A stretch of 25,518 bases of DNA, taken from positions 1 to 25,518 of IMG/VR virus record IMGVR_UViG_3300045988_091615; one strand, written 5' to 3'. The DNA is from a virus (taxonomy: Duplodnaviria; Heunggongvirae; Uroviricota; Caudoviricetes). Positions 645-11,157 of the stretch are shown in pieces. The translations under genes and the position numbers were made by a program. Below the pieces are notes generated by a model. That model saw nothing but the letters and a program-made list of their open reading frames with translations. It searched no databases and had not been told where the DNA came from. The first letter of the stretch is position 1; each line of letters starts with the position of its first letter.

Positions 645-916
645 GCATTCGTATTGAAATTGGCGAACGTTATGTGGTTACCAGTGACAGCTTCCAGTTT
701 ATTCTCCACGAGAAAAAGAGAGCGGAAAGCGGTAAAAACGCCGGTCAGGAGTGGCTGGCGGTGGTTGGTTATTACCCGAAATTAAGCCAGCTCGTTTCCG
801 GCCTGATGCATCACGATATTCTGACCGGAAGCGCAAAGTCTTTTGCTGATTTAAACGCGCAGGTTGAGCAACTCAGCAAGCGTTGTTCAGAGGCTTTTGG
901 CTCATATGGCCGTTAA
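641..916 (+). CDS. Hypothetical early-operon protein (91 aa)
   Basis: ATG 641 overlaps the preceding stop. ORF ends TAA 914-916, overlapping the start of gene A. Same orientation and tight coupling as the flanking early genes. Confidence 0.6.
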   Translation: MSIRIEIGERYVVTSDSFQFILHEKKRAESGKNAGQEWLAVVGYYPKLSQLVSGLMHHDILTGSAKSFADLNAQVEQLSKRCSEAFGSYGR

Positions 917-3182
917 AGCCTCCGGGCGTTTTGTCCCTCCGTCAGCATTTGCCGCAGGCACCGGTAAGGCGTTTACCGGTGCTTATGCATGGAACGCGCC
1001 ACGCGAGGCTGTCGGGCGCGAAAGACCTCTTACACGTGACGAGATGCGTCAGGTGCAAGGTGTTTTATCCACGATTAACCGCCTGCCTTACTTTTTGCGC
1101 TCGCTGTTTACTTCACGCTATGACTACATCCGGCGCAATAAAAGCCCGGTGCACGGGTTTTATTTCCTCACATCCACTTTTCAGCGTCGTTTATGGCCGC
1201 GCATTGAGCGCGTGAATCAGCGCCATGAAATGAACACCGACGCGTCGTTACTGTTTCTGGCAGAGCGTGACCACTATGCGCGCCTGCCGGGAATGAATGA
1301 CAAGGAGCTGAAAAAATTTGCCGCCCGTATCTCATCGCAGCTTTTCATGATGTATGAGGAACTCTGCGATGCCTGGGTGGATGCCCATGGCGAAAAAGAA
1401 TCGCTGTTTACGGATGAGGCGCAGGCTCACCTGTATGGTCATGTTGCTGGCGCTGCACGTGCTTTCAATATTTCCCCGCTCTACTGGAAAAAATACCGTA
1501 AAGGACAGATGACCACGAGGCAGGCATATTCTGCCATTGCCCGCCTGTTTAACGATGAGTGGTGGACTCATCAGCTTAAAGGCCAGCGTATGCGCTGGCA
1601 TGAGGCGTTACTGATTGCTGTCGGGGAGGTCAATAAAGACCGTTCTCCTTATGCCAGTAAACATGCCATTCGTGATGTGCGTGCGCGCCGCCAGGCAAAT
1701 CTGGAATTTCTTAAATCGTGTGACCTTGAAAACAGGGAAACAGGCGAGCGCATCGACCTTATCAGTAAGGTGATGGGCAGTATTTCTAATCCTGAAATTC
1801 GCCGGATGGAGCTGATGAACACCATTGCCGGTATTGAGCGTTACGCCGCCGCAGAGGGTGATGTGGGGATGTTTATCACGCTTACCGCGCCGTCAAAGTA
1901 TCACCCGACACGTCAGGTCGGAAAAGGCGAAAGTAAAACCGTTCAGCTTAATCACGGCTGGAACGATGAGGCATTTAATCCAAAGGATGCGCAGCGTTAT
2001 CTCTGCCGTATCTGGAGCCTGATGCGCACGGCATTCAAGGATAATGATTTACAGGTCTACGGTTTGCGTGTCGTCGAGCCACACCACGACGGAACGCCGC
2101 ACTGGCATATGATGCTTTTTTGTAATCCGCGCCAGCGTAACCAGATTATCGAAATCATGCGTCGCTATGCGCTCAAAGAGGATGGCGACGAAAGAGGAGC
2201 CGCGCGAAACCGTTTTCAGGCAAAACACCTTAACCGGGGCGGTGCTGCGGGGTATATCGCGAAATACATCTCAAAAAACATCGACGGCTATGCACTGGAT
2301 GGTCAGTTCGATAACGATACCGGCAGGCCGCTTAAAGATACTGCCGCGGCTGTTACCGCATGGGCGTCAACGTGGCGCATTCCGCAATTTAAAACGGTTG
2401 GCCTGCCGACAATGGGGGCTTACCGTGAACTACGCAAATTGCCTCGTGGCGTCAGCATTGCTGATGAGTTTGACGAACGCGTCGAGGCTGCACGCGCCGC
2501 CGCAGACAGTGGTGATTTTGCGTTGTATATCAGCGCGCAGGGTGGGGCAAATGTCCCGCGCGATTGTCAGACTGTCAGGGTCGCCCGTAGCCCGTCGGAT
2601 GACGTTAACGAGTACGAGGAAGAAGTCGAGAGAGTGGTCGGCATTTACGCGCCGCATCTCGGCGCGCGTCATATTCATATCACCAGAACGACGGACTGGC
2701 GCATTGTGCCGAAAGTTCCGGTCGTTGAGCCTTTGACTTTAAAAAGCGGCATCGCCGCGCCTCGGAGTCCTGTCAATAACTGTGGAAAGCTCACCGGTGG
2801 TGATACTTCGTTACCGGCTCCCACGCCTTCTGAGCACGCCGCAGCAGTGCTTAATCTGGTTGATGACGGTGTTATCGAATGGTATGACCCGGAGGTCGTG
2901 AGGGCGCTCAGGGGCGCATTAAAACACGGCCTGAGAAGACCAAACCGTCAGCAAAGAAACGGAAGCCCGTTAAAACCGCATGAAATAGCGCCATCGGCCA
3001 GACTGACCCGGTCGGAAAGAATGCAAATTACCCGTATCCGCGTTGACCTTGCTCAGAACGGTATCAGGCCTCAGAGATGGGAGCTTGAGGCGCTGGCGCG
3101 TGGCGCGACTGTAAATTACGACGGTAAAAAATTCACGTATCCGGTCGCTGATGAGTGGCCGGGATTCACAATGGACCATTGA
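906..3182 (+). CDS. A: Rolling-circle replication initiation endonuclease, P2 gpA family
   Basis: Long ORF with the characteristic GpA motifs (HWHMMLF; AGYIAKYISKNIDGY with catalytic tyrosines). First ATG is at 906 with GAGG upstream; the ORF-track start at 864 is a TTG. From 906 the product is 758 aa, close to the ~761 aa I recall for P2 A. Confidence 0.9.
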   Translation: MAVKASGRFVPPSAFAAGTGKAFTGAYAWNAPREAVGRERPLTRDEMRQVQGVLSTINRLPYFLRSLFTSRYDYIRRNKSPVHGFYFLTSTFQRRLWPRIERVNQRHEMNTDASLLFLAERDHYARLPGMNDKELKKFAARISSQLFMMYEELCDAWVDAHGEKESLFTDEAQAHLYGHVAGAARAFNISPLYWKKYRKGQMTTRQAYSAIARLFNDEWWTHQLKGQRMRWHEALLIAVGEVNKDRSPYASKHAIRDVRARRQANLEFLKSCDLENRETGERIDLISKVMGSISNPEIRRMELMNTIAGIERYAAAEGDVGMFITLTAPSKYHPTRQVGKGESKTVQLNHGWNDEAFNPKDAQRYLCRIWSLMRTAFKDNDLQVYGLRVVEPHHDGTPHWHMMLFCNPRQRNQIIEIMRRYALKEDGDERGAARNRFQAKHLNRGGAAGYIAKYISKNIDGYALDGQFDNDTGRPLKDTAAAVTAWASTWRIPQFKTVGLPTMGAYRELRKLPRGVSIADEFDERVEAARAAADSGDFALYISAQGGANVPRDCQTVRVARSPSDDVNEYEEEVERVVGIYAPHLGARHIHITRTTDWRIVPKVPVVEPLTLKSGIAAPRSPVNNCGKLTGGDTSLPAPTPSEHAAAVLNLVDDGVIEWYDPEVVRALRGALKHGLRRPNRQQRNGSPLKPHEIAPSARLTRSERMQITRIRVDLAQNGIRPQRWELEALARGATVNYDGKKFTYPVADEWPGFTMDH

Positions 3183-3280
3183 TGATTAACATGAAAGAAT
3201 TACGGAGCTTGCTTATATCGTGTTATGTCAGTTTACTGGATACAGGGCAAGTGAATGCCCCTTTCCATGAATTAGATTAA
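3182..3280 (+). CDS. Micro-ORF (32 aa) translationally coupled to A; possible leader peptide or remnant at the cargo junction
   Basis: ATG 3182-3184 overlaps the A stop (TGATG). Translation MINMKELRSLLISCYVSLLDTGQVNAPFHELD, stop TAA 3278-3280, 11 nt before the cargo gene ATG. Below the ORF-track size cutoff; read by hand. Confidence 0.25.
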   Translation: MINMKELRSLLISCYVSLLDTGQVNAPFHELD

Positions 3281-3291
3281 AGGCTTGCAAA

Positions 3292-4623
3292 ATGAACAAT
3301 AACAGTAAGAAAACTTTGAGTAAGAAAAGAACCAAGAAAGCCAAAAAGAAGTCGCTTACCCCTGAACAAAAAGCATTGCAAGCAGAACAAGCAGCAAAAA
3401 AAGCGCAAATTATAGAGAATAGGCGCTCTATTACAGCTCATGCTATTAATCTTTTTCAGCAATATACAGCACTCCGTAAAAAAGGATTAGATAGTTCCAC
3501 TGCTACTTTGCAAGCTTATGCTGATTATGAAAAAGTACATGGACATAAATTCCTTAGTTCTGTCTCTATGTGGACAAAAATCAAAACTGAAGCAGGGATT
3601 CGGATCTATGATCTTGAGAGACAAGATAGCCGTAAATCGCTTAATCTTGCTAAGATTCCGACCCGTTTAGAGGCTAAGCGTAGTGTACTGACACAGAACC
3701 AAAAGAAAGTACATAACCAGAATGCAAATACATTACGCTTAATCGGTGGCAAAAAGCTACCTGTAACATCTATGGGGCTTATTGTATGCCCTGTCTGCGA
3801 GATACATATAAAAGATAGTGCTATAGAGTGGCATTTACGACACAACCACGTAGATCATGTAGATAACCCGTTTACTAACCCTATAGTAGCTCCTATTGAT
3901 ACCTTAGAAGAGACTGTAGAAATACGTGATCTACTAATTGGTGATAAAACACTTCCGATTAAATCTAGTACTATTAATATGGGGAGTTACAAGAAAGATA
4001 AACGTTATTTTAATAAGCAAGTTTATCAAACGGCATTGCTAACAATGACACAATCAGAAGCGTGGAAACTCGCGACTGATGAAGAATCTAGTATGACTTT
4101 TTTAAGCAATCAGTACATAAGTCCATTAACATCACCCGAACCCAATAATGAAATATCTCTTATCATGGATGGAACGGATATAGCCATTAATGAAAGTCTA
4201 ACTAATCCTTTCAAGGCCGCAAACGATACCTGTGCTACAGGACGAACAGTCGAGGTTACTCACAAAGTCCGTCATGCTGGAGATCAAGCTGATTTCAAAC
4301 GCCGTGTTTGGGATAACTTCAATGGCAGATGTGCTATTACTGGCTATCCATTGCCAGAGGGGATATTGGAAGCCGCACATATTGAAGCAATAACAGAATC
4401 AGCAAATAATAACACATCTAATGGCCTGTTACTTGAAGTAAGTTTACACCGAATGTTTGATAAAGGATTAATGGGGATTAATCCAGAGGACTTAACGGTT
4501 CATTTCTCTATTAATTGTATCCACAAAACTATGTTTGAGGGTAAAACTCTACAACCGCATCATGTAGAACTTGATGCTGGGAAGTTGATGACAAAATGGA
4601 AAAAGTTCCATGATAAGCGTTAA
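3292..4623 (+). CDS. Cargo protein with C-terminal HNH_2-type nuclease domain, internal C2H2-like zinc-finger motif and Lys-rich N-terminus (candidate defence effector)
   Basis: 443-aa ORF, ATG 3292 with AAGG 8 nt upstream, markedly AT-rich. C-terminus carries the HNH_2 signature GRCAITG...EAAHIEA...SNGLLLEVSLHRMFDKG. Mid-protein CPVCEIHIKDSAIEWHLRHNH resembles a C2H2 finger. N-terminal ~45 aa are highly basic (KKTLSKKRTKKAKKK...). Confidence 0.8.
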   Translation: MNNNSKKTLSKKRTKKAKKKSLTPEQKALQAEQAAKKAQIIENRRSITAHAINLFQQYTALRKKGLDSSTATLQAYADYEKVHGHKFLSSVSMWTKIKTEAGIRIYDLERQDSRKSLNLAKIPTRLEAKRSVLTQNQKKVHNQNANTLRLIGGKKLPVTSMGLIVCPVCEIHIKDSAIEWHLRHNHVDHVDNPFTNPIVAPIDTLEETVEIRDLLIGDKTLPIKSSTINMGSYKKDKRYFNKQVYQTALLTMTQSEAWKLATDEESSMTFLSNQYISPLTSPEPNNEISLIMDGTDIAINESLTNPFKAANDTCATGRTVEVTHKVRHAGDQADFKRRVWDNFNGRCAITGYPLPEGILEAAHIEAITESANNNTSNGLLLEVSLHRMFDKGLMGINPEDLTVHFSINCIHKTMFEGKTLQPHHVELDAGKLMTKWKKFHDKR

Positions 4624-4650
4624 CATGACTTCTTCTGGTGCAGAGAGGCG

Positions 4651-4679
4651 TTAGATTTAATTATGTATTATGATTTAAT
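4651..4679 (+). promoter_or_regulatory. Possible sigma70-like promoter for the second cargo gene
   Basis: TTAGAT (4651-4656), 17-nt spacer, TTTAAT (4674-4679) in the AT-rich 91-bp gap between the two cargo ORFs. Weak match, by eye only. Confidence 0.2.
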
Positions 4680-4714
4680 TTTGGGTGTGATTTGTTATAT
4701 GGGGAATAGATTAT

Positions 4715-5134
4715 ATGGTGACGCTTGATATGGTTTATTGGAAATTTGGTTATGCTTCGGAAGCAGCTCAATTACTGGAGACTGAGTTGATAAATGTTAT
4801 CACTGAGTATGATATGAGTCAGGGGAAAGATATACAGTCGCTGAAAAAACAGTTTTTAGAAATGGATAAATACACGCTGGGTAAATTGAATTACGCACTG
4901 AAGTCTAGGATGGTGGAGGATGCTGATACACTGGAGTATGTGTCAGATGCTCTTAAAGCCAGAAACTACTTGGCACATGATTTTTTTCGCGCTCATAATT
5001 TTGCCAAAGATACCCCAGCAGGACGGCAAAAAATGCTTGATGATTTACAAAAAACACACAACATTATTTTTGAGGCATACCGGAAAGTACTGCTAATTAG
5101 TGGCATCAAAATTCCACCTTTAGAAGATGATTAG
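4715..5134 (+). CDS. Small cargo protein (139 aa) with RNxxxH motif; possible HEPN-like RNase or partner/immunity protein
   Basis: ATG 4715 (alternative ATG at 4730), GGGGA 9 nt upstream, AT-rich, co-oriented with the HNH ORF. Contains KARNYLAHDFF, which fits the HEPN Rx4-6H (RNxxxH) signature. A short motif only. Confidence 0.65.
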   Translation: MVTLDMVYWKFGYASEAAQLLETELINVITEYDMSQGKDIQSLKKQFLEMDKYTLGKLNYALKSRMVEDADTLEYVSDALKARNYLAHDFFRAHNFAKDTPAGRQKMLDDLQKTHNIIFEAYRKVLLISGIKIPPLEDD

Positions 5135-5262
5135 CCGACGCCCGCAATAGTTGCATTATTCTGCATGGCTTTTAAGGGGCGGATCTACGTGACCACCGCC
5201 AGTACTGGTGCGTCTCCAGTGTGTTCATGCACCTGCATTAAAACCGACCCATGAAGCGGGCG

Positions 5263-5281
5263 GGCGAGGCGGGGAAAGCAC
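5263..5281. other. cos: cos site: 19-nt cohesive-end sequence GGCGAGGCGGGGAAAGCAC
   Basis: Exact match to the 19-nt P2 cohesive end as I remember it, at the expected position between the A-side cargo locus and the 3' end of Q. Flanked by an 11-bp inverted repeat (ACCACCGCCAG 5192-5202 / CTGGCGGTGGT 5288-5298) and a G+T-rich strand-biased stretch. Confidence 0.7.
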
Positions 5282-5420
5282 TGCGCGCTGGCGGTGGTGC
5301 TGATTTTATTTTTTCAGCGTCTGAGCGCGTCGTGATGGCGTTTAGATTGTGCGCCGGGGCGTTGGTGTGTCTGCGGGGTGTTTTGTGCGGTGGTGAGCGT
5401 GTGAGGGCGTGATGGCGGGT

Positions 5421-5444
5421 TGTAAAAAGCCGCCCGTAGGCGGC
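5421..5444 (-). terminator. Rho-independent terminator of the P-Q operon
   Basis: Minus-strand hairpin GCCGCC-TACG-GGCGGC (5429-5444) followed by TTTTTAC, immediately 3' of the Q stop. Confidence 0.6.
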
Positions 5445-5449
5445 GATGT

Positions 5450-6484
5450 TCAGCCGTTGTCAGTGTCCAGTGAGTAGTTTTTAAAGCGGATGACCTCCTG
5501 ACCGAGCCAGCCGTTTATCTCGCGGATCCTGTCCTGTAACGGGATAAGCTCATTGCGGACAAAGACCTTTGCCACTTTCTCAATATCACCCAGCGACCCG
5601 ACGTTCTCCGGCTTGCCGCCCATCAACTGAAAGGGGATGCGGTGCGCGTCCAGCAGGTCAGCGGCGCTGGCTTTTTTGATATTAAAAAAATCGTCCTTCG
5701 TTGCCACTTCACTGAGCGGGATAATTTTAATGCCGTCAGCTTTCCCCTGCGGGGCATAGAGAAACAGGTTTTTAAAGTTGTTGCGGCCTTTCGACTTCAC
5801 CATGTTTTCGCGGAGCATTTCGATATCGTTGCGATCCTGCACGGCATCGGTGACGTACATGATGTATCCGGCATGCGCGCCGTTTTCGTAATACTTGCGG
5901 CGGAACAGCGTGGCCGACTCATTCAGCCAGGCAGAGTTAAGGGCGCTGAGATATTCCGGCAGGCCGTACAGCTCCTGATTAATATCCGGCTCCAGCAGGT
6001 GAAACACGGAGCCGGGCGCGAAAGGTGTCGGCTCGTTGAAGGACGGCACCCACCAGTAAACATCCTCTTCCACACCACGGCGGGTATATTTTGCCGGTGA
6101 GGTTTCCAGTCTGATGACCTTACCGGTGGTGCTGTAACGCTTTTCCAGAAACGCATTACCGAACACCAGAAAATCCAGCACAAAGCGGCTGAAATCCTGC
6201 TGGGAAAGCCACGGATGCGGGATAAATGTCGAGGCCAGAATATTACGTTTGACGTAAATCGGTGAGCTGTGATGCACGGCAGCACGCAGGCTTTTTGCCA
6301 GACCGGTAAAGCTGACCGGTGGCTCATACCATCTGCCGTTACTGATGCATTCGACGTAATCCAGAATGTCACGGCGGTCGAGTACCGGCACCGGCTCACC
6401 AAAGGTGAATGCCTCCATTTTCGGGGCGCTGGTGGTCATTGTTTTTGCCGCAGGTTGCGGTGTTTTCCCTTTTTTCTTGCTCAT
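5450..6484 (-). CDS. Q: Portal protein, P2 gpQ family
   Basis: 344 aa, the same length I recall for P2 Q, and recognisable as P2 portal sequence. Its ATG overlaps the P stop by one base (ATGA). Confidence 0.9.
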   Translation of the reverse strand: MSKKKGKTPQPAAKTMTTSAPKMEAFTFGEPVPVLDRRDILDYVECISNGRWYEPPVSFTGLAKSLRAAVHHSSPIYVKRNILASTFIPHPWLSQQDFSRFVLDFLVFGNAFLEKRYSTTGKVIRLETSPAKYTRRGVEEDVYWWVPSFNEPTPFAPGSVFHLLEPDINQELYGLPEYLSALNSAWLNESATLFRRKYYENGAHAGYIMYVTDAVQDRNDIEMLRENMVKSKGRNNFKNLFLYAPQGKADGIKIIPLSEVATKDDFFNIKKASAADLLDAHRIPFQLMGGKPENVGSLGDIEKVAKVFVRNELIPLQDRIREINGWLGQEVIRFKNYSLDTDNG

Positions 6485-8256
6485 CAGTAAAACTCCAGAA
6501 TGGTGGATGTCAGCGGGGTGCTGATACCGGCGGTGAGTGGCTCATTTAACAGGGCGTGCATGGTCGCCCAGGCGAGGTCGGCATGGCTGGCTTCCTCGCT
6601 GCGGCTGGCCTCATAGGTGGCGCTGCGTCCGCTGCTGGTCATGGTCTTGCGGATAGCCATAAACGAGCTGGTGATGTCGGTGGCGCTGACGTCATATTCC
6701 AGACAGCCACGGCGAATAACGTCTTTTGCCTTGAGCACCATTGCGGTTTTCATTTCCGGCGTGTAGCGGATATCGCGCGCGGCGGGATAGAACGAGCGAA
6801 CGAGCTGGAACACGCCGACACCGAGGCCGGTGGCATCAATTCCGATGTATTCGACGTTGTATTTTTCGGTGAGTTTGCGGATGGATTCAGCCTGGGTGGC
6901 AAAGTCCATGCCTTTCCACTGGTGACGCTCAAGTATTCTGAATTTGCCACCGGCCACCACCGGCGGTGCCAGCACCACGCATCCGGCACTGTCGCCACGG
7001 TGTGACGGGTCGTAACCAATCCATACCGGACGTGAGCCGAACGGATTGGCGGCAAACGGCGCATAGTCTTCCCATTCTTCCAGCGTGTCGACCATGCAGC
7101 GTTGCAGATCCTCGAACGGGAACACCGACGCCTTGTCGTCAACAAATTCACACATGAACAGGTTTTTAAAATCGTCGGCGCTGTTTTCACGTTTGAGCTG
7201 CTCAATGTCGAACAGTGTGCAGCCACCTTTCAGGGCATCCTCAATGGTGACAATCTGCCGCCACTGGCCGTCCGCACAGAGAAGACCACCGGCAAGGGCG
7301 TTATGACTGACGTCGATTTCCACGCGTTCGGCGGCGCTGGCGCGTCCCCGGTTGAACAGTTCACCTGACCAGAACGGGTAGGCGTCGTGCGCCAGCGTGG
7401 ACGGGGTGGAGAAATAGGTCGAGCGCAGGTGACTCTGTGAGGCCATACCTGATGCTACCTTACGCAGTACCTGAAAATTCGGGATCCAGAAAATCTCGTC
7501 GACGTACAGGTCGCCGTTATGGCTCTGTGCGGTGTTGGAGTTGGTGCCGAGAAAAATCAGTTTTGCACCGTTATTGCCCAGGACAATCGGGTCACCGGTC
7601 AGGTCAACGTCAACCAGACGGGCAAAGGCGATGATGTATTCGCGGAACACATACGCCTGCGTTTTACTGGCCGACAGAAAAATCTGGTTATGGCCGGTTT
7701 TCAGGGCACGCAGCAGCGCCTCGCGGGAAAAATAAAACGTCGCGCCAATCTGGCGGGATTTCAGGATATCGCGGATGCGGTGCTCAAGCCCGGCGCGATA
7801 CCAGTGCAACTGATAGTCGAAAGACTGCTCAAAGAAAATCTGCTCCAGCTTTTCGATGGCCTCGTCACTGAAAAAATTCTTTTTCGGTTTGCGACGCCCG
7901 CCTTTGTTGCGGTTAGCGACGTTCGGATTAAGGTCTGCCTCGTTGCCGGTCTGACTGTAACGGTTTACCCGTGCCAGTCGTTCAATCTGGCGTCCCAGCA
8001 GGTCAATTTCCTTGAAGTCACCGCCGGTTTTCTGCGGTTTGATGATGAGCTGGGTCAGCCGCGCTTCCAGACTCATTTCGACACGGCTGATGGGGGCAAC
8101 GCTGTCCCAGCCGTCGCGCTGTTTCCAGCTCTGCACCGTCGGGCGTTTCATCTGCAACATGGCGGCAATCTGCGGCACGGAAAACCCCTGCCAGTACAGC
8201 AGCGCCGCCTGACGACGCGGGTCGTGTAAAAGAGTGGTGTCTGTGGTGATGGTCAT
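6484..8256 (-). CDS. P: Terminase large (ATPase) subunit, P2 gpP family
   Basis: Large minus-strand ORF. Likely start is the ATG ending at 8256 (MTITTDTTLL...), giving 590 aa; the ORF-track start at 8286 adds 10 residues. Position immediately upstream of Q and divergent from O as in P2. Confidence 0.9.
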   Translation of the reverse strand: MTITTDTTLLHDPRRQAALLYWQGFSVPQIAAMLQMKRPTVQSWKQRDGWDSVAPISRVEMSLEARLTQLIIKPQKTGGDFKEIDLLGRQIERLARVNRYSQTGNEADLNPNVANRNKGGRRKPKKNFFSDEAIEKLEQIFFEQSFDYQLHWYRAGLEHRIRDILKSRQIGATFYFSREALLRALKTGHNQIFLSASKTQAYVFREYIIAFARLVDVDLTGDPIVLGNNGAKLIFLGTNSNTAQSHNGDLYVDEIFWIPNFQVLRKVASGMASQSHLRSTYFSTPSTLAHDAYPFWSGELFNRGRASAAERVEIDVSHNALAGGLLCADGQWRQIVTIEDALKGGCTLFDIEQLKRENSADDFKNLFMCEFVDDKASVFPFEDLQRCMVDTLEEWEDYAPFAANPFGSRPVWIGYDPSHRGDSAGCVVLAPPVVAGGKFRILERHQWKGMDFATQAESIRKLTEKYNVEYIGIDATGLGVGVFQLVRSFYPAARDIRYTPEMKTAMVLKAKDVIRRGCLEYDVSATDITSSFMAIRKTMTSSGRSATYEASRSEEASHADLAWATMHALLNEPLTAGISTPLTSTILEFY

Positions 8257-8429
8257 GAATACCTCGCCGTGATGAATACAGGGCAAGGCTACTGAGTCGC
8301 GCCCCGCGATTCGCTAAGGTGCTGTTGTGTCAGTGATAAGCCATCCGGGACTGATGGCGGAGGATGCGCATCGTCGGGAAACTGATGCCGACATGTGACT
8401 CCTCTAATCACTATTCAGGACTCCTGACA

Positions 8430-10419: not shown

Positions 10420-11157
10420 ATGACGAGTCCCGCACAGCGCCACATGATGCGGGTCTCGGCAGCGATGACCGCGCAGCGGGAAGCCGCCCCGCTGCGACAT
10501 GCAACTGTCTATGAGCAGATGCTGGTCAAGCTGGCCGCAGACCAGCGCACACTGAAAGCGATTTATTCAAAAGAGCTGAAGGCCGCGAAAAAACGCGAAC
10601 TGCTGCCGTTCTGGTTGCCGTGGGTGAACGGCGTGCTGGAGCAGGGCAAAGGTGCACAGGATGACATTCTGATGACGGTCATGCTGTGGCGTCTGGATAC
10701 CGGCGATATTGCCGGTGCGCTGGAGATTGCCCGTTATGCCCTGAAGTACGGTCTGACCATGCCGGGTAAACACCGCCGTACCCCGCCGTACATGTTCACC
10801 GAGGAGGTGGCGCTTGCGGCCATGCGCGCTCACGCTGCCGGTGAGTCTGTGGATCCCCGCCTGCTGACGGACACCCTTGAACTGACCGCCACGGCTGACA
10901 TGCCTGATGAAGTGCGCGCAAAGCTGCACAAAATCACCGGTCTGTTTCTGCGTGACGGTGGTGATGCCGCAGGTGCGCTGGCACACCTGCAACGTGCGAC
11001 ACAGCTCGACTGTCAGGCAGGCGTCAAAAAAGAGATTGAACGACTGGAGCGGGAGCTGAAACCGAAGCCGGAGCCAAAAGCGGTCACCCGCGCCCCGCGT
11101 AAGACCCGGAGTGCGACACCGGCAAAACGTGGACGCCCGAAAAAGAAAGCCAGTTAA
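10420..11157 (+). CDS. M: Terminase small (endonuclease) subunit, P2 gpM family
   Basis: 245 aa ORF starting 4 nt after the N stop, with a basic C-terminal tail (KTRSATPAKRGRPKKKAS), in the position of P2 M. Confidence 0.85.
   Translation: MTSPAQRHMMRVSAAMTAQREAAPLRHATVYEQMLVKLAADQRTLKAIYSKELKAAKKRELLPFWLPWVNGVLEQGKGAQDDILMTVMLWRLDTGDIAGALEIARYALKYGLTMPGKHRRTPPYMFTEEVALAAMRAHAAGESVDPRLLTDTLELTATADMPDEVRAKLHKITGLFLRDGGDAAGALAHLQRATQLDCQAGVKKEIERLERELKPKPEPKAVTRAPRKTRSATPAKRGRPKKKAS

Follow-up and report, generated by a model that had tools for sequence, protein, structure and literature searches.

What part of the DNA between the variable cargo of a P2-like prophage and its portal gene would be recognised and cut when the genome is packaged? 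The question arises for the stretch analysed here, a piece of viral DNA of 25,518 nucleotides in total that we call the window. An earlier note on this DNA had placed a cos site with a P2-type 19-nt cohesive end between the cargo next to gene A and the end of gene Q, and had proposed that an inverted repeat around the 19-mer and repeats in the G+T-rich DNA to its right are terminase recognition elements.

The P2 terminase consists of a large subunit with ATPase and nuclease activity, gpP, and a small one, gpM. The enzyme acts on circular phage DNA after excision and replication, when proheads are present. Two nicks are made 19 bp apart at cos, and the linear genome is packaged into proheads via the gpQ portal. 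The 5'-protruding ends anneal after injection, and the genome is recircularised. Since attP lies elsewhere on the circle, cos is internal in the prophage.

The genes next to the site, and those for the terminase, are arranged in the window as follows.

864-3182, plus strand: gene A (replication), Pfam Phage_GPA
3292-5134, plus strand: variable cargo between gene A and cos
3292-4623, plus strand: cargo protein of 443 aa with a C-terminal HNH_2 domain
4715-5134, plus strand: cargo protein of 139 aa
5450-6484, minus strand: portal gene Q, 344 aa, Pfam Phage_portal, annotated by RefSeq as 'phage portal protein' in a near-identical prophage
6484-8286, minus strand: terminase large subunit gene P, Pfam Terminase_6N and Terminase_6C
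10420-11157, plus strand: terminase small subunit gene M, Pfam Phage_term_smal (E = 1.3e-47)

The coordinates of P are taken from the first in-frame start of the open reading frame; its homologue is annotated as 590 aa. At its N-terminus, P carries a helix-turn-helix domain (Terminase_5/HTH_23 at residues 22-79, Pfam). Both terminase genes, P and M, are intact in the window. With Pfam-backed neighbours on both sides, the last cargo stop at 5134 and the 3' end of Q at 5450, the site lies where the earlier note had put it. The stop codon of Q is 187 nt from the nick in the window, and 180-220 nt from it in 86 of 93 related loci.

The 19-nt sequence GGCGAGGCGGGGAAAGCAC, at 5263-5281 on the plus strand, is the cohesive-end sequence and the equivalent of cosN. 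It has a single match in the whole window, even when up to 3 mismatches are allowed, with 0.01 matches expected per shuffle. The earlier note had taken the 19-mer for the P2 cohesive end, and alignment to the P2 cos bears this out: the stretch is identical to bases 1-19 of P2 (NC_001895), annotated 'cosL; left cohesive end', to P2 cosR at 33575-33593, and also to the P4 end. When 5135-5449 is used as the query, about 30 linear phage records start at the base that matches 5263 (query position 129), among them fiAA91-ss (with annotated cosL), L-413C, HQ103, P24A7b, S164 and VB-YPM-4. The alignment to 186 that the note had called for was also run, and the architecture is the same, with a 19-mer that is 2 positions off. 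The records of 186 and PSP3 annotate the equivalent 19 positions as 'top strand cut at 5' end, bottom strand cut at 3' end'. On the basis of this annotation, we place the predicted nicks in the window at 5262/5263 in the top strand and 5281/5282 in the bottom strand, which would leave 5'-protruding ends of 19 nt. Signed positions below are counted from the top-strand nick.

The 19-mer is embedded in a longer common sequence.

5234-5288, plus strand: 55-bp core, made up of TGCATTAAAACCGACCCATGAAGCGGGCG, the 19-mer and TGCGCGC

When the joined ends of P2 and P4 are compared, exactly 55 bp are in common, namely TGCATTAAAACCGCCCCG..AAGCGGGCG, the 19-mer and.GCGCGC. The core of the window agrees with P2 at 53 of 55 positions, and the two differences (C to A, G to A) are both frequent among other phages. 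A core cos signal common to P2 and P4 is known (PMC9122126, PMC13586616), and the '55 bp core' is credited to Ziermann & Calendar 1990 in later papers (PMC9594776, PMC5694545). In 19-mer, 55-bp core and gene position, the locus has what is expected of a P2-type (Peduoviridae) cos site, and the sequence thus supports this identification. The core also contains a dyad, CCGnCCC...GGGCGG, which we considered as a required hairpin and rejected, because its left half varies without compensation, as for example in the Ralstonia phage, which has CCATTCG (judged by eye).

Cleavage at 5263 and 5281 in this very prophage is what the annotated relatives predict. Many P2-like E. coli prophages are cryptic, and the window is without att sites, int and a full late gene set, so that the site might be seen as an inert relic of a defective prophage that is never cut. 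Several observations speak against this reading, which we regard as unlikely. The core is one base off the cos cores of propagated phages; for D8 and 12W this single difference holds over 72 nt (5227-5298). Genes A, Q, P and M have their full length and match Pfam families strongly, and open reading frames that correspond to the other head, tail and lysis genes are present in P2 order in the window. Finally, near-identical prophages are present in several unrelated strains; a prophage that is 99.3% identical is annotated by RefSeq in E. coli chromosomes of pig, chicken and human origin.

The left neighbour of the site is the cargo locus. The locus between gpA and gpQ, beside cos, is known in P2-like phages as a hotspot for cargo (defence) genes (Rousset et al. 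2022, PMC9122126; PMC13586616), and in the window, too, conserved gpA and the cos/gpQ block have variable genes between them. The full cargo is found in 12 of 5426 complete E. coli genomes, and some part of the query 3200-5500 is matched in 2156. In the profiled part of the cargo region, 4600-5150, the G+C content is 28-43%. The last cargo open reading frame stops at 5134, and DNA of the conserved cos flank begins at about 5148. The statement that the site marks the right edge of the cargo locus is thus correct in that the site adjoins the gpA-gpQ hotspot, but the edge itself is about 115-130 bp left of the nick and not at the 19-mer. A P2-type cos site and an adjacent cargo hotspot are already known biology.

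For a wider comparison, cos regions were gathered by a scan of IMG/VR for GGCGWGGCGGGGAAAGCAY, together with P2, 186, PSP3, P4 and several phage records. The resulting 123 unique cos regions were sorted by the portal gene just downstream, as phage-type when it was present and as satellite-type when it was absent. The range from -120 to +220 was covered in 84 phage-type and 32 satellite-type regions, and the range from -300 to +300 in 80 and 31; the satellite sample consists mostly of close P4 relatives. The core region is near-invariant across the 84 phage-type and 32 satellite-type regions.

The first candidates for recognition elements are the arms of the inverted repeat and a palindrome that overlaps the left one.

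5192-5202, plus strand: left arm of the inverted repeat, ACCACCGCCAG, lineage-specific
5196-5212: imperfect palindrome CCGCCAGTACTGGTGCG, which supplies the inner half of the left arm
5288-5298, plus strand: right arm of the inverted repeat, CTGGCGGTGGT, within the conserved phage-type right flank

As the earlier note had said, ACCACCGCCAG and its reverse complement CTGGCGGTGGT bracket the 19-mer, and together they make up a perfect inverted repeat of 11 nt whose arms are 85 nt apart. It is possible to imagine that this repeat, together with the G+T-rich repeats on the Q side, forms the recognition elements of the terminase, in the way that cosB adjoins lambda cosN on its gene side. The inverted repeat is indeed improbable by chance, since just 0.85% of 2000 dinucleotide-preserving shuffles of 5192-5449 contain a perfect one of at least 11 nt, and in the 186 type the left palindrome is complementary over 9 nt to the DNA that begins just right of the nick. 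However, the arms are not conserved as a pair, and for this reason the inverted repeat was rejected as a conserved feature. In the other 83 aligned phage-type cos regions, between 1 and 9 of the 11 arm positions are complementary (mode 5), and full complementarity is confined to the window among the 84. Outside this set, the prophage GPEC1446, which has the same cargo, carries the repeat at 11/11, and pro483 has 8/11. The right arm is near-invariant in P2-type relatives, reads CCAGCGGTGGT in the 186 type and is CTGACGGTGGT in P2 itself. The left arm is absent from P2 and P4, and P4 is without either arm. P2 has CTGACGG where the window has CTGGCGG, and it therefore has no 11-nt inverted repeat.

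The outer part of the left arm, ACCACC, is conserved at just 20-40%. Its inner half belongs to the palindrome CCGCCAGTACTGGTGCG, the local form of a recurrent element, GCCAG-NN-CTGG[C/T]GCG, at about -67 to -51. This element is present in many 186-type and P2-type relatives, P2 and many others have unrelated sequence there, and P4 has a different GC-rich palindrome at its place. The distribution suggests that the palindrome is dispensable. Folded as RNA, the left flank gains no stability over shuffled sequence (z = +0.72). The 11-nt inverted repeat appears to be an accident of this lineage, built on the recurrent GCCAG/CTGGC motif, and the proposal that it is a terminase element is not supported.

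On the right side of the nick, the candidates lie in DNA of unusual composition.

5289-5428, plus strand: G+T-rich non-coding spacer, in phages only, delimited by composition and conservation
5304-5314: T-tract within the spacer, flanked by GCTGA/TCAGC
about 5321-5332: conserved block CTGAGCGCGTCG within the spacer
5331-5340 and 5408-5417: direct repeat CGTGATGGCG within the spacer
5424-5444, minus strand: tQ, the Rho-independent terminator that ends the Q-P operon, with the hairpin GCCGCC-TACG-GGCGGC at 5444-5429 and TTTTT after it (terminator scan)

The G+T bias that had been noticed downstream of the 19-mer is real. Over 5282-5449, the top strand is 72.6% G+T (G 72, T 50, C 29, A 17), compared to a mean of 50.5% (sd 5.3%) for 168-nt windows overall. 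Only 0.06% of these reach 72.6%, and the maximum starts at 5256, so that the right flank has the most extreme bias of the whole stretch. It is also conserved across the 84 phage-type regions, even between the P2 and 186 types. Bias and conservation would both fit a role of the flank in terminase recognition, as would the recurrence of a near-repeat, CGTGAYGGCG / CGTGATGRCG, in many P2-type relatives (it is not found in P2 or the 186 type).

Several findings speak against such a role, however. The direct repeat CGTGATGGCG is present at both of its places, but a perfect direct repeat of at least 10 nt occurs in 8.4% of the 2000 dinucleotide-preserving shuffles of 5192-5449 and is not significant alone, and the 10-mer is not repeated in P2 itself. 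It is a near-repeat typical of a low-complexity G+T-rich flank. The Q terminator, homologous to P2 'tQ' (160-181) and 186 'tW', takes up the last approximately 25 nt of the flank. In the P4-like satellite cos regions (31-32, plus P4), similarity to the window ends after TGCGCGC at +26, and yet P4 is packaged by the P2 terminase (PMC9122126). Because P4 lacks the flank, the flank should not be required for recognition and cutting in trans. The repeats of the right flank are thus not conserved in every DNA packaged by the same terminase, which sets them apart from a lambda-like cosB. In two distant P2-like phages, the Ralstonia phage YO009_3 and the Erwinia phage ENT90, the core and the left boxes described below are kept, but the right flank is not visibly G+T-rich (judged by eye, not computed). 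We consider it quite improbable that the terminase recognises the inverted repeat and the G+T-rich repeats, and the function suggested for them is not borne out.

Some function of the right flank is probable, given how well it is conserved in phages. It may contribute in cis to the packaging of full-length phage DNA. A phage-specific role can be envisaged, for example as a spacer or insulator that separates cos from the Q terminator; alternatively, the flank could act at a later step of phage-length packaging or injection. A structured RNA was rejected, as Rfam gave no match at gathering thresholds in the whole window, or at E <= 1 in 5000-5600. The sequence GCTGGCGG in the right flank is one mismatch from Chi; it was discarded as a Chi-like site, since by our reasoning its orientation would be wrong for RecBCD entering this end.

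A further rival reading is that the interval encodes a small protein. An open reading frame of 53 aa exists at 5251-5412, homologous frames are annotated as 'hypothetical protein' in 9W and other phage records, and by eye P2 retains an open frame from a GTG. However, the frame spans the nick and would be split in virion DNA, nothing like a Shine-Dalgarno sequence precedes it, and the equivalent frame of 186 has, by eye, no start codon and a stop after 18 codons. The top strand, with 10% A, has few stop codons from composition alone, and the single Pfam hit is noise (E = 0.0046, below cut-off). The frame was rejected as a gene, and we consider it highly implausible that it encodes a protein.

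We return to the left side of the nick, where the phages and the satellites have more than the core in common.

5152-5166: distal TGCAT boxes at -111 (5152-5156) and -101 (5162-5166), candidate cosB-like repeats
5227-5238: proximal boxes, ATGCA at -36 (5227-5231) and TGCAT at -29 (5234-5238), ATGCACCTGCAT

A further box at -124, found in most relatives, is degenerate or lost in the window, at the cargo junction. The window has 4 boxes in 128 nt, compared to 0.22 expected from the window-wide density. In an alignment-free position histogram, TGCAT stands at -124 in 24 of 80 phage-type and 25 of 31 satellite-type regions, at -111 or -110 in 60 and 25, at -101 in 53 and 28, and at -29 in 76 and all 31; ATGCA is found at -36 in 55 phage-type and 12 satellite-type regions. 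Likewise without alignment, the information content of 111 unique cos regions peaks at the boxes and falls between them. The phasing is the same in P2, 186, PSP3 and P4, and it recurs in 27 further cos regions with 19-mers unlike the P2 and 186 sequences; across these variants, the 19-mer changes mainly at positions 5, 13-14 and 19. YO009_3 has boxes at -124, -111, -101 (as CGCAT) and -29, without the one at -36, and ENT90 has them at -125/-121, -112, -102, -36 and -29. In both phages, the DNA between the boxes is unalignable, although the phasing is kept.

Since TGCA is self-complementary, any two boxes can pair, and the array could in principle be no more than a terminator hairpin. This fits most satellites: in P4 (dG -17.2 kcal/mol) and in 18 of the 31 satellites, the -124 and -111 boxes pair into a strong hairpin with a T-run behind it. 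Transcription termination could therefore account for part of the box conservation in satellites. In phages, a strong box hairpin is found in just 13 of 80, and the boxes persist where the potential for a hairpin is weak. Of 40 such phages, 32 retain the -111 box and 37 the -101 box, and termination alone is therefore insufficient to explain the conservation. The explanation by a terminator hairpin was rejected on these grounds.

Taken together, the DNA that phages and satellites have in common consists of the 55-bp core and [T/C]GCAT boxes at about -124, -111, -101, -36 and -29. Because only the left side is common to P2-like phages and to the P4-like satellites that use the same terminase, the recognition determinants are most likely in and left of the core, on the cargo side. 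Sequence comparison makes it highly probable that a P2-like (Peduovirus) E. coli prophage has its cos core at 5234-5288, with recognition in or left of the core and the G+T-rich flank as a spacer. The TGCAT boxes are the best candidates for terminase binding, presumably by gpM or by the N-terminal helix-turn-helix domain of gpP. More specifically, the phased [T/C]GCAT array may be a cosB-like recognition region that P4-like satellites have copied, with a phage-only role for the G+T-rich flank; we put forward this reading tentatively, and give it somewhat less than an even chance. In such a scheme, the terminase would recognise the core together with the left-side boxes and nick at 5262/5263 and 5281/5282. 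It is known that DNA beyond the 55-bp P4 core raises cosmid transduction more than 1000-fold, without a statement about the responsible side (PMC9594776). This gain from longer flanks agrees with the proposed recognition of the left boxes.

The finding that prompted the analysis, taken by itself, amounts to locating a textbook element. For annotation, it is useful in that the position of cos fixes the inferred virion genome ends of the prophage and the right boundary of the cargo hotspot. The phased TGCAT array is a side observation beside a known cos site. We found no description of it in the searchable literature, and Ziermann & Calendar 1990 may already contain one. Cosmid delivery systems based on P2 and P4 are being actively developed, and flanks of different length around the 55-bp core change their efficiency more than 1000-fold (PMC9594776). 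If the left-side boxes matter and the G+T-rich flank is dispensable for satellites, minimal packaging signals of high efficiency should be easier to design. If the proposal is true, the box array would also help to explain how satellites gain their specificity for the helper.

Of the known systems, we compare the cos site of the window first with that of P2. The 19-mer is identical, the core agrees at 53 of 55 positions, and TGCGCGC follows after the nick. The right side also corresponds, with a G+T-rich spacer and tQ before Q, and about 89% identity over +1 to +186, and so does the place of the site between the variable locus on the gpA side and Q. In contrast, there is no resemblance left of about -42, where P2 has the old promoter region. 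There, the left flank of the window (CCGCCAGTACTGGTGCG...CCAGTGTGTTCATGCACC) is similar to 186 and unlike P2, and a lineage-specific extension of a common motif gives the inverted repeat of 11 nt that P2 lacks. The cargo also differs, with orf91, tin and old in P2, and the HNH protein and the 139-aa protein in the window. In 186 and PSP3 (Eganvirus), the architecture is the same, the left flank from about -70 to -1 is very similar, the right flank is G+T-rich too (0.66), and the portal terminator tW is found at the equivalent place. The 19-mer, however, is 2 positions off (GGCGTGGCGGGGAAAGCAT), the right flank opens with CCAG instead of CTGG, and the overall identity is about 73%.

P4 and the P4-like satellites share the identical 19-mer and the 55-bp core, and have TGCAT at -124, -111, -101 and -29. 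Their resemblance to the window ends at +26, and both the G+T-rich flank and the portal gene are missing. In P4, the -124 and -111 boxes lie inside a strong hairpin with a T-run after psu; the window is without the -124 box. The lambda cos (cosQ-cosN-cosB) is similar in the staggered nicks and 5' cohesive ends, as is generally known, but there is no sequence similarity, and the overhang is 19 nt in P2-type phages and 12 nt in lambda. P2 packages from circular monomers and not from concatemers, and a separate termination element of the cosQ type may therefore be unneeded. By analogy with lambda, short repeated boxes beside the nick would be a plausible array for the binding of the small terminase subunit (see PMC4669245). 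The candidate array of the window is on the side that faces away from the terminase and portal genes.

To the left of the cos nick (inferred top-strand cut at 5262/5263), [T/C]GCAT boxes are phased at about -124, -111, -101, -36 and -29 from the nick. In the window, they fall into two stretches, and such boxes are also present in P2, 186, PSP3, P4 and the collected cos loci L138, L139 and L142-L191.

5152-5166: distal [T/C]GCAT boxes
5227-5238: proximal [T/C]GCAT boxes

The positions of the boxes are kept among P2-like phages, P4-like satellites and the distant phages Ralstonia YO009_3 and Erwinia ENT90; the spacer DNA between them cannot be aligned. Judged by this pattern in the sequences, the phased boxes are candidate terminase-binding repeats. 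No account of phased [T/C]GCAT boxes at cos was found in the searchable literature. As the terminase large subunit gpP carries an N-terminal helix-turn-helix, it might, besides the small subunit gpM, be involved in the sequence-specific recognition of cos.

6484-8286, minus strand: gpP, with the helix-turn-helix at residues 22-79 (Pfam Terminase_5, HTH_23)

In P4 (L017) and in 18 of the 31 satellite loci, a strong hairpin followed by a T-run spans -136 to -98 and encloses the TGCAT boxes at -124 and -111 (for example GCCATGCA...TGCATGGC-TTT, dG -17.2 kcal/mol). Some pairs of its outer stem, judged by eye, are apparently compensatory (GCC/GGC vs ACC/GGT). The hairpin DNA that carries these two boxes probably also terminates the psu operon in P4-like satellites.

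The cargo between gene A and cos consists of two genes.

3292-4623, plus strand: protein of 443 aa, with an HNH_2 domain at the C-terminus (phrog_20585, function unknown)
4715-5134, plus strand: 139-aa protein (phrog_12893, function unknown)

The G+C content is 28-43% in the profiled part (4600-5150), the PADLOC matches are weak (HNH, 1.9e-11; PD-Lambda-3_B, 0.002), and the complete cargo is rare, being found in 12 of 5426 complete E. coli genomes. The two genes may together make up an anti-phage system. An IS3-family transposase interrupts the same cargo locus in E. coli O139:H1 strain W13-16 (NZ_CP080235.1), where the 2.3-kb query (3200-5500) matches in two pieces over about 3.6 kb.

One further open reading frame lies across the nick itself.

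5251-5412, plus strand: 53-aa open reading frame

Several phage entries in GenBank, e.g. that of 9W, annotate homologues of it as 'hypothetical protein'. The frame was rejected as a gene; almost certainly, it is an artefact of base composition, the top strand being poor in A.

Among L142-L191, the loci with variant cos 19-mers, differences occur chiefly at positions 5 (A/T/G), 13-14 (AA/AT/AG/GG/TA) and 19 (C/T/G), and the flanking AAGCGGGC and TGCGCGC are nearly invariant. On sequence comparison, this natural variation is a map of the positions tolerated by the terminase. Just right of the nick, P2-type phages have GCGC-TG-GCGG, whereas 186-type loci (L012, L014, L008, L011) have GCGC-CA-GCGG. 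The two-base change (5289-5290 in the window) flips the hexamer GCTGGC to GCCAGC, and switches which half of the left-flank palindrome complements the right flank.
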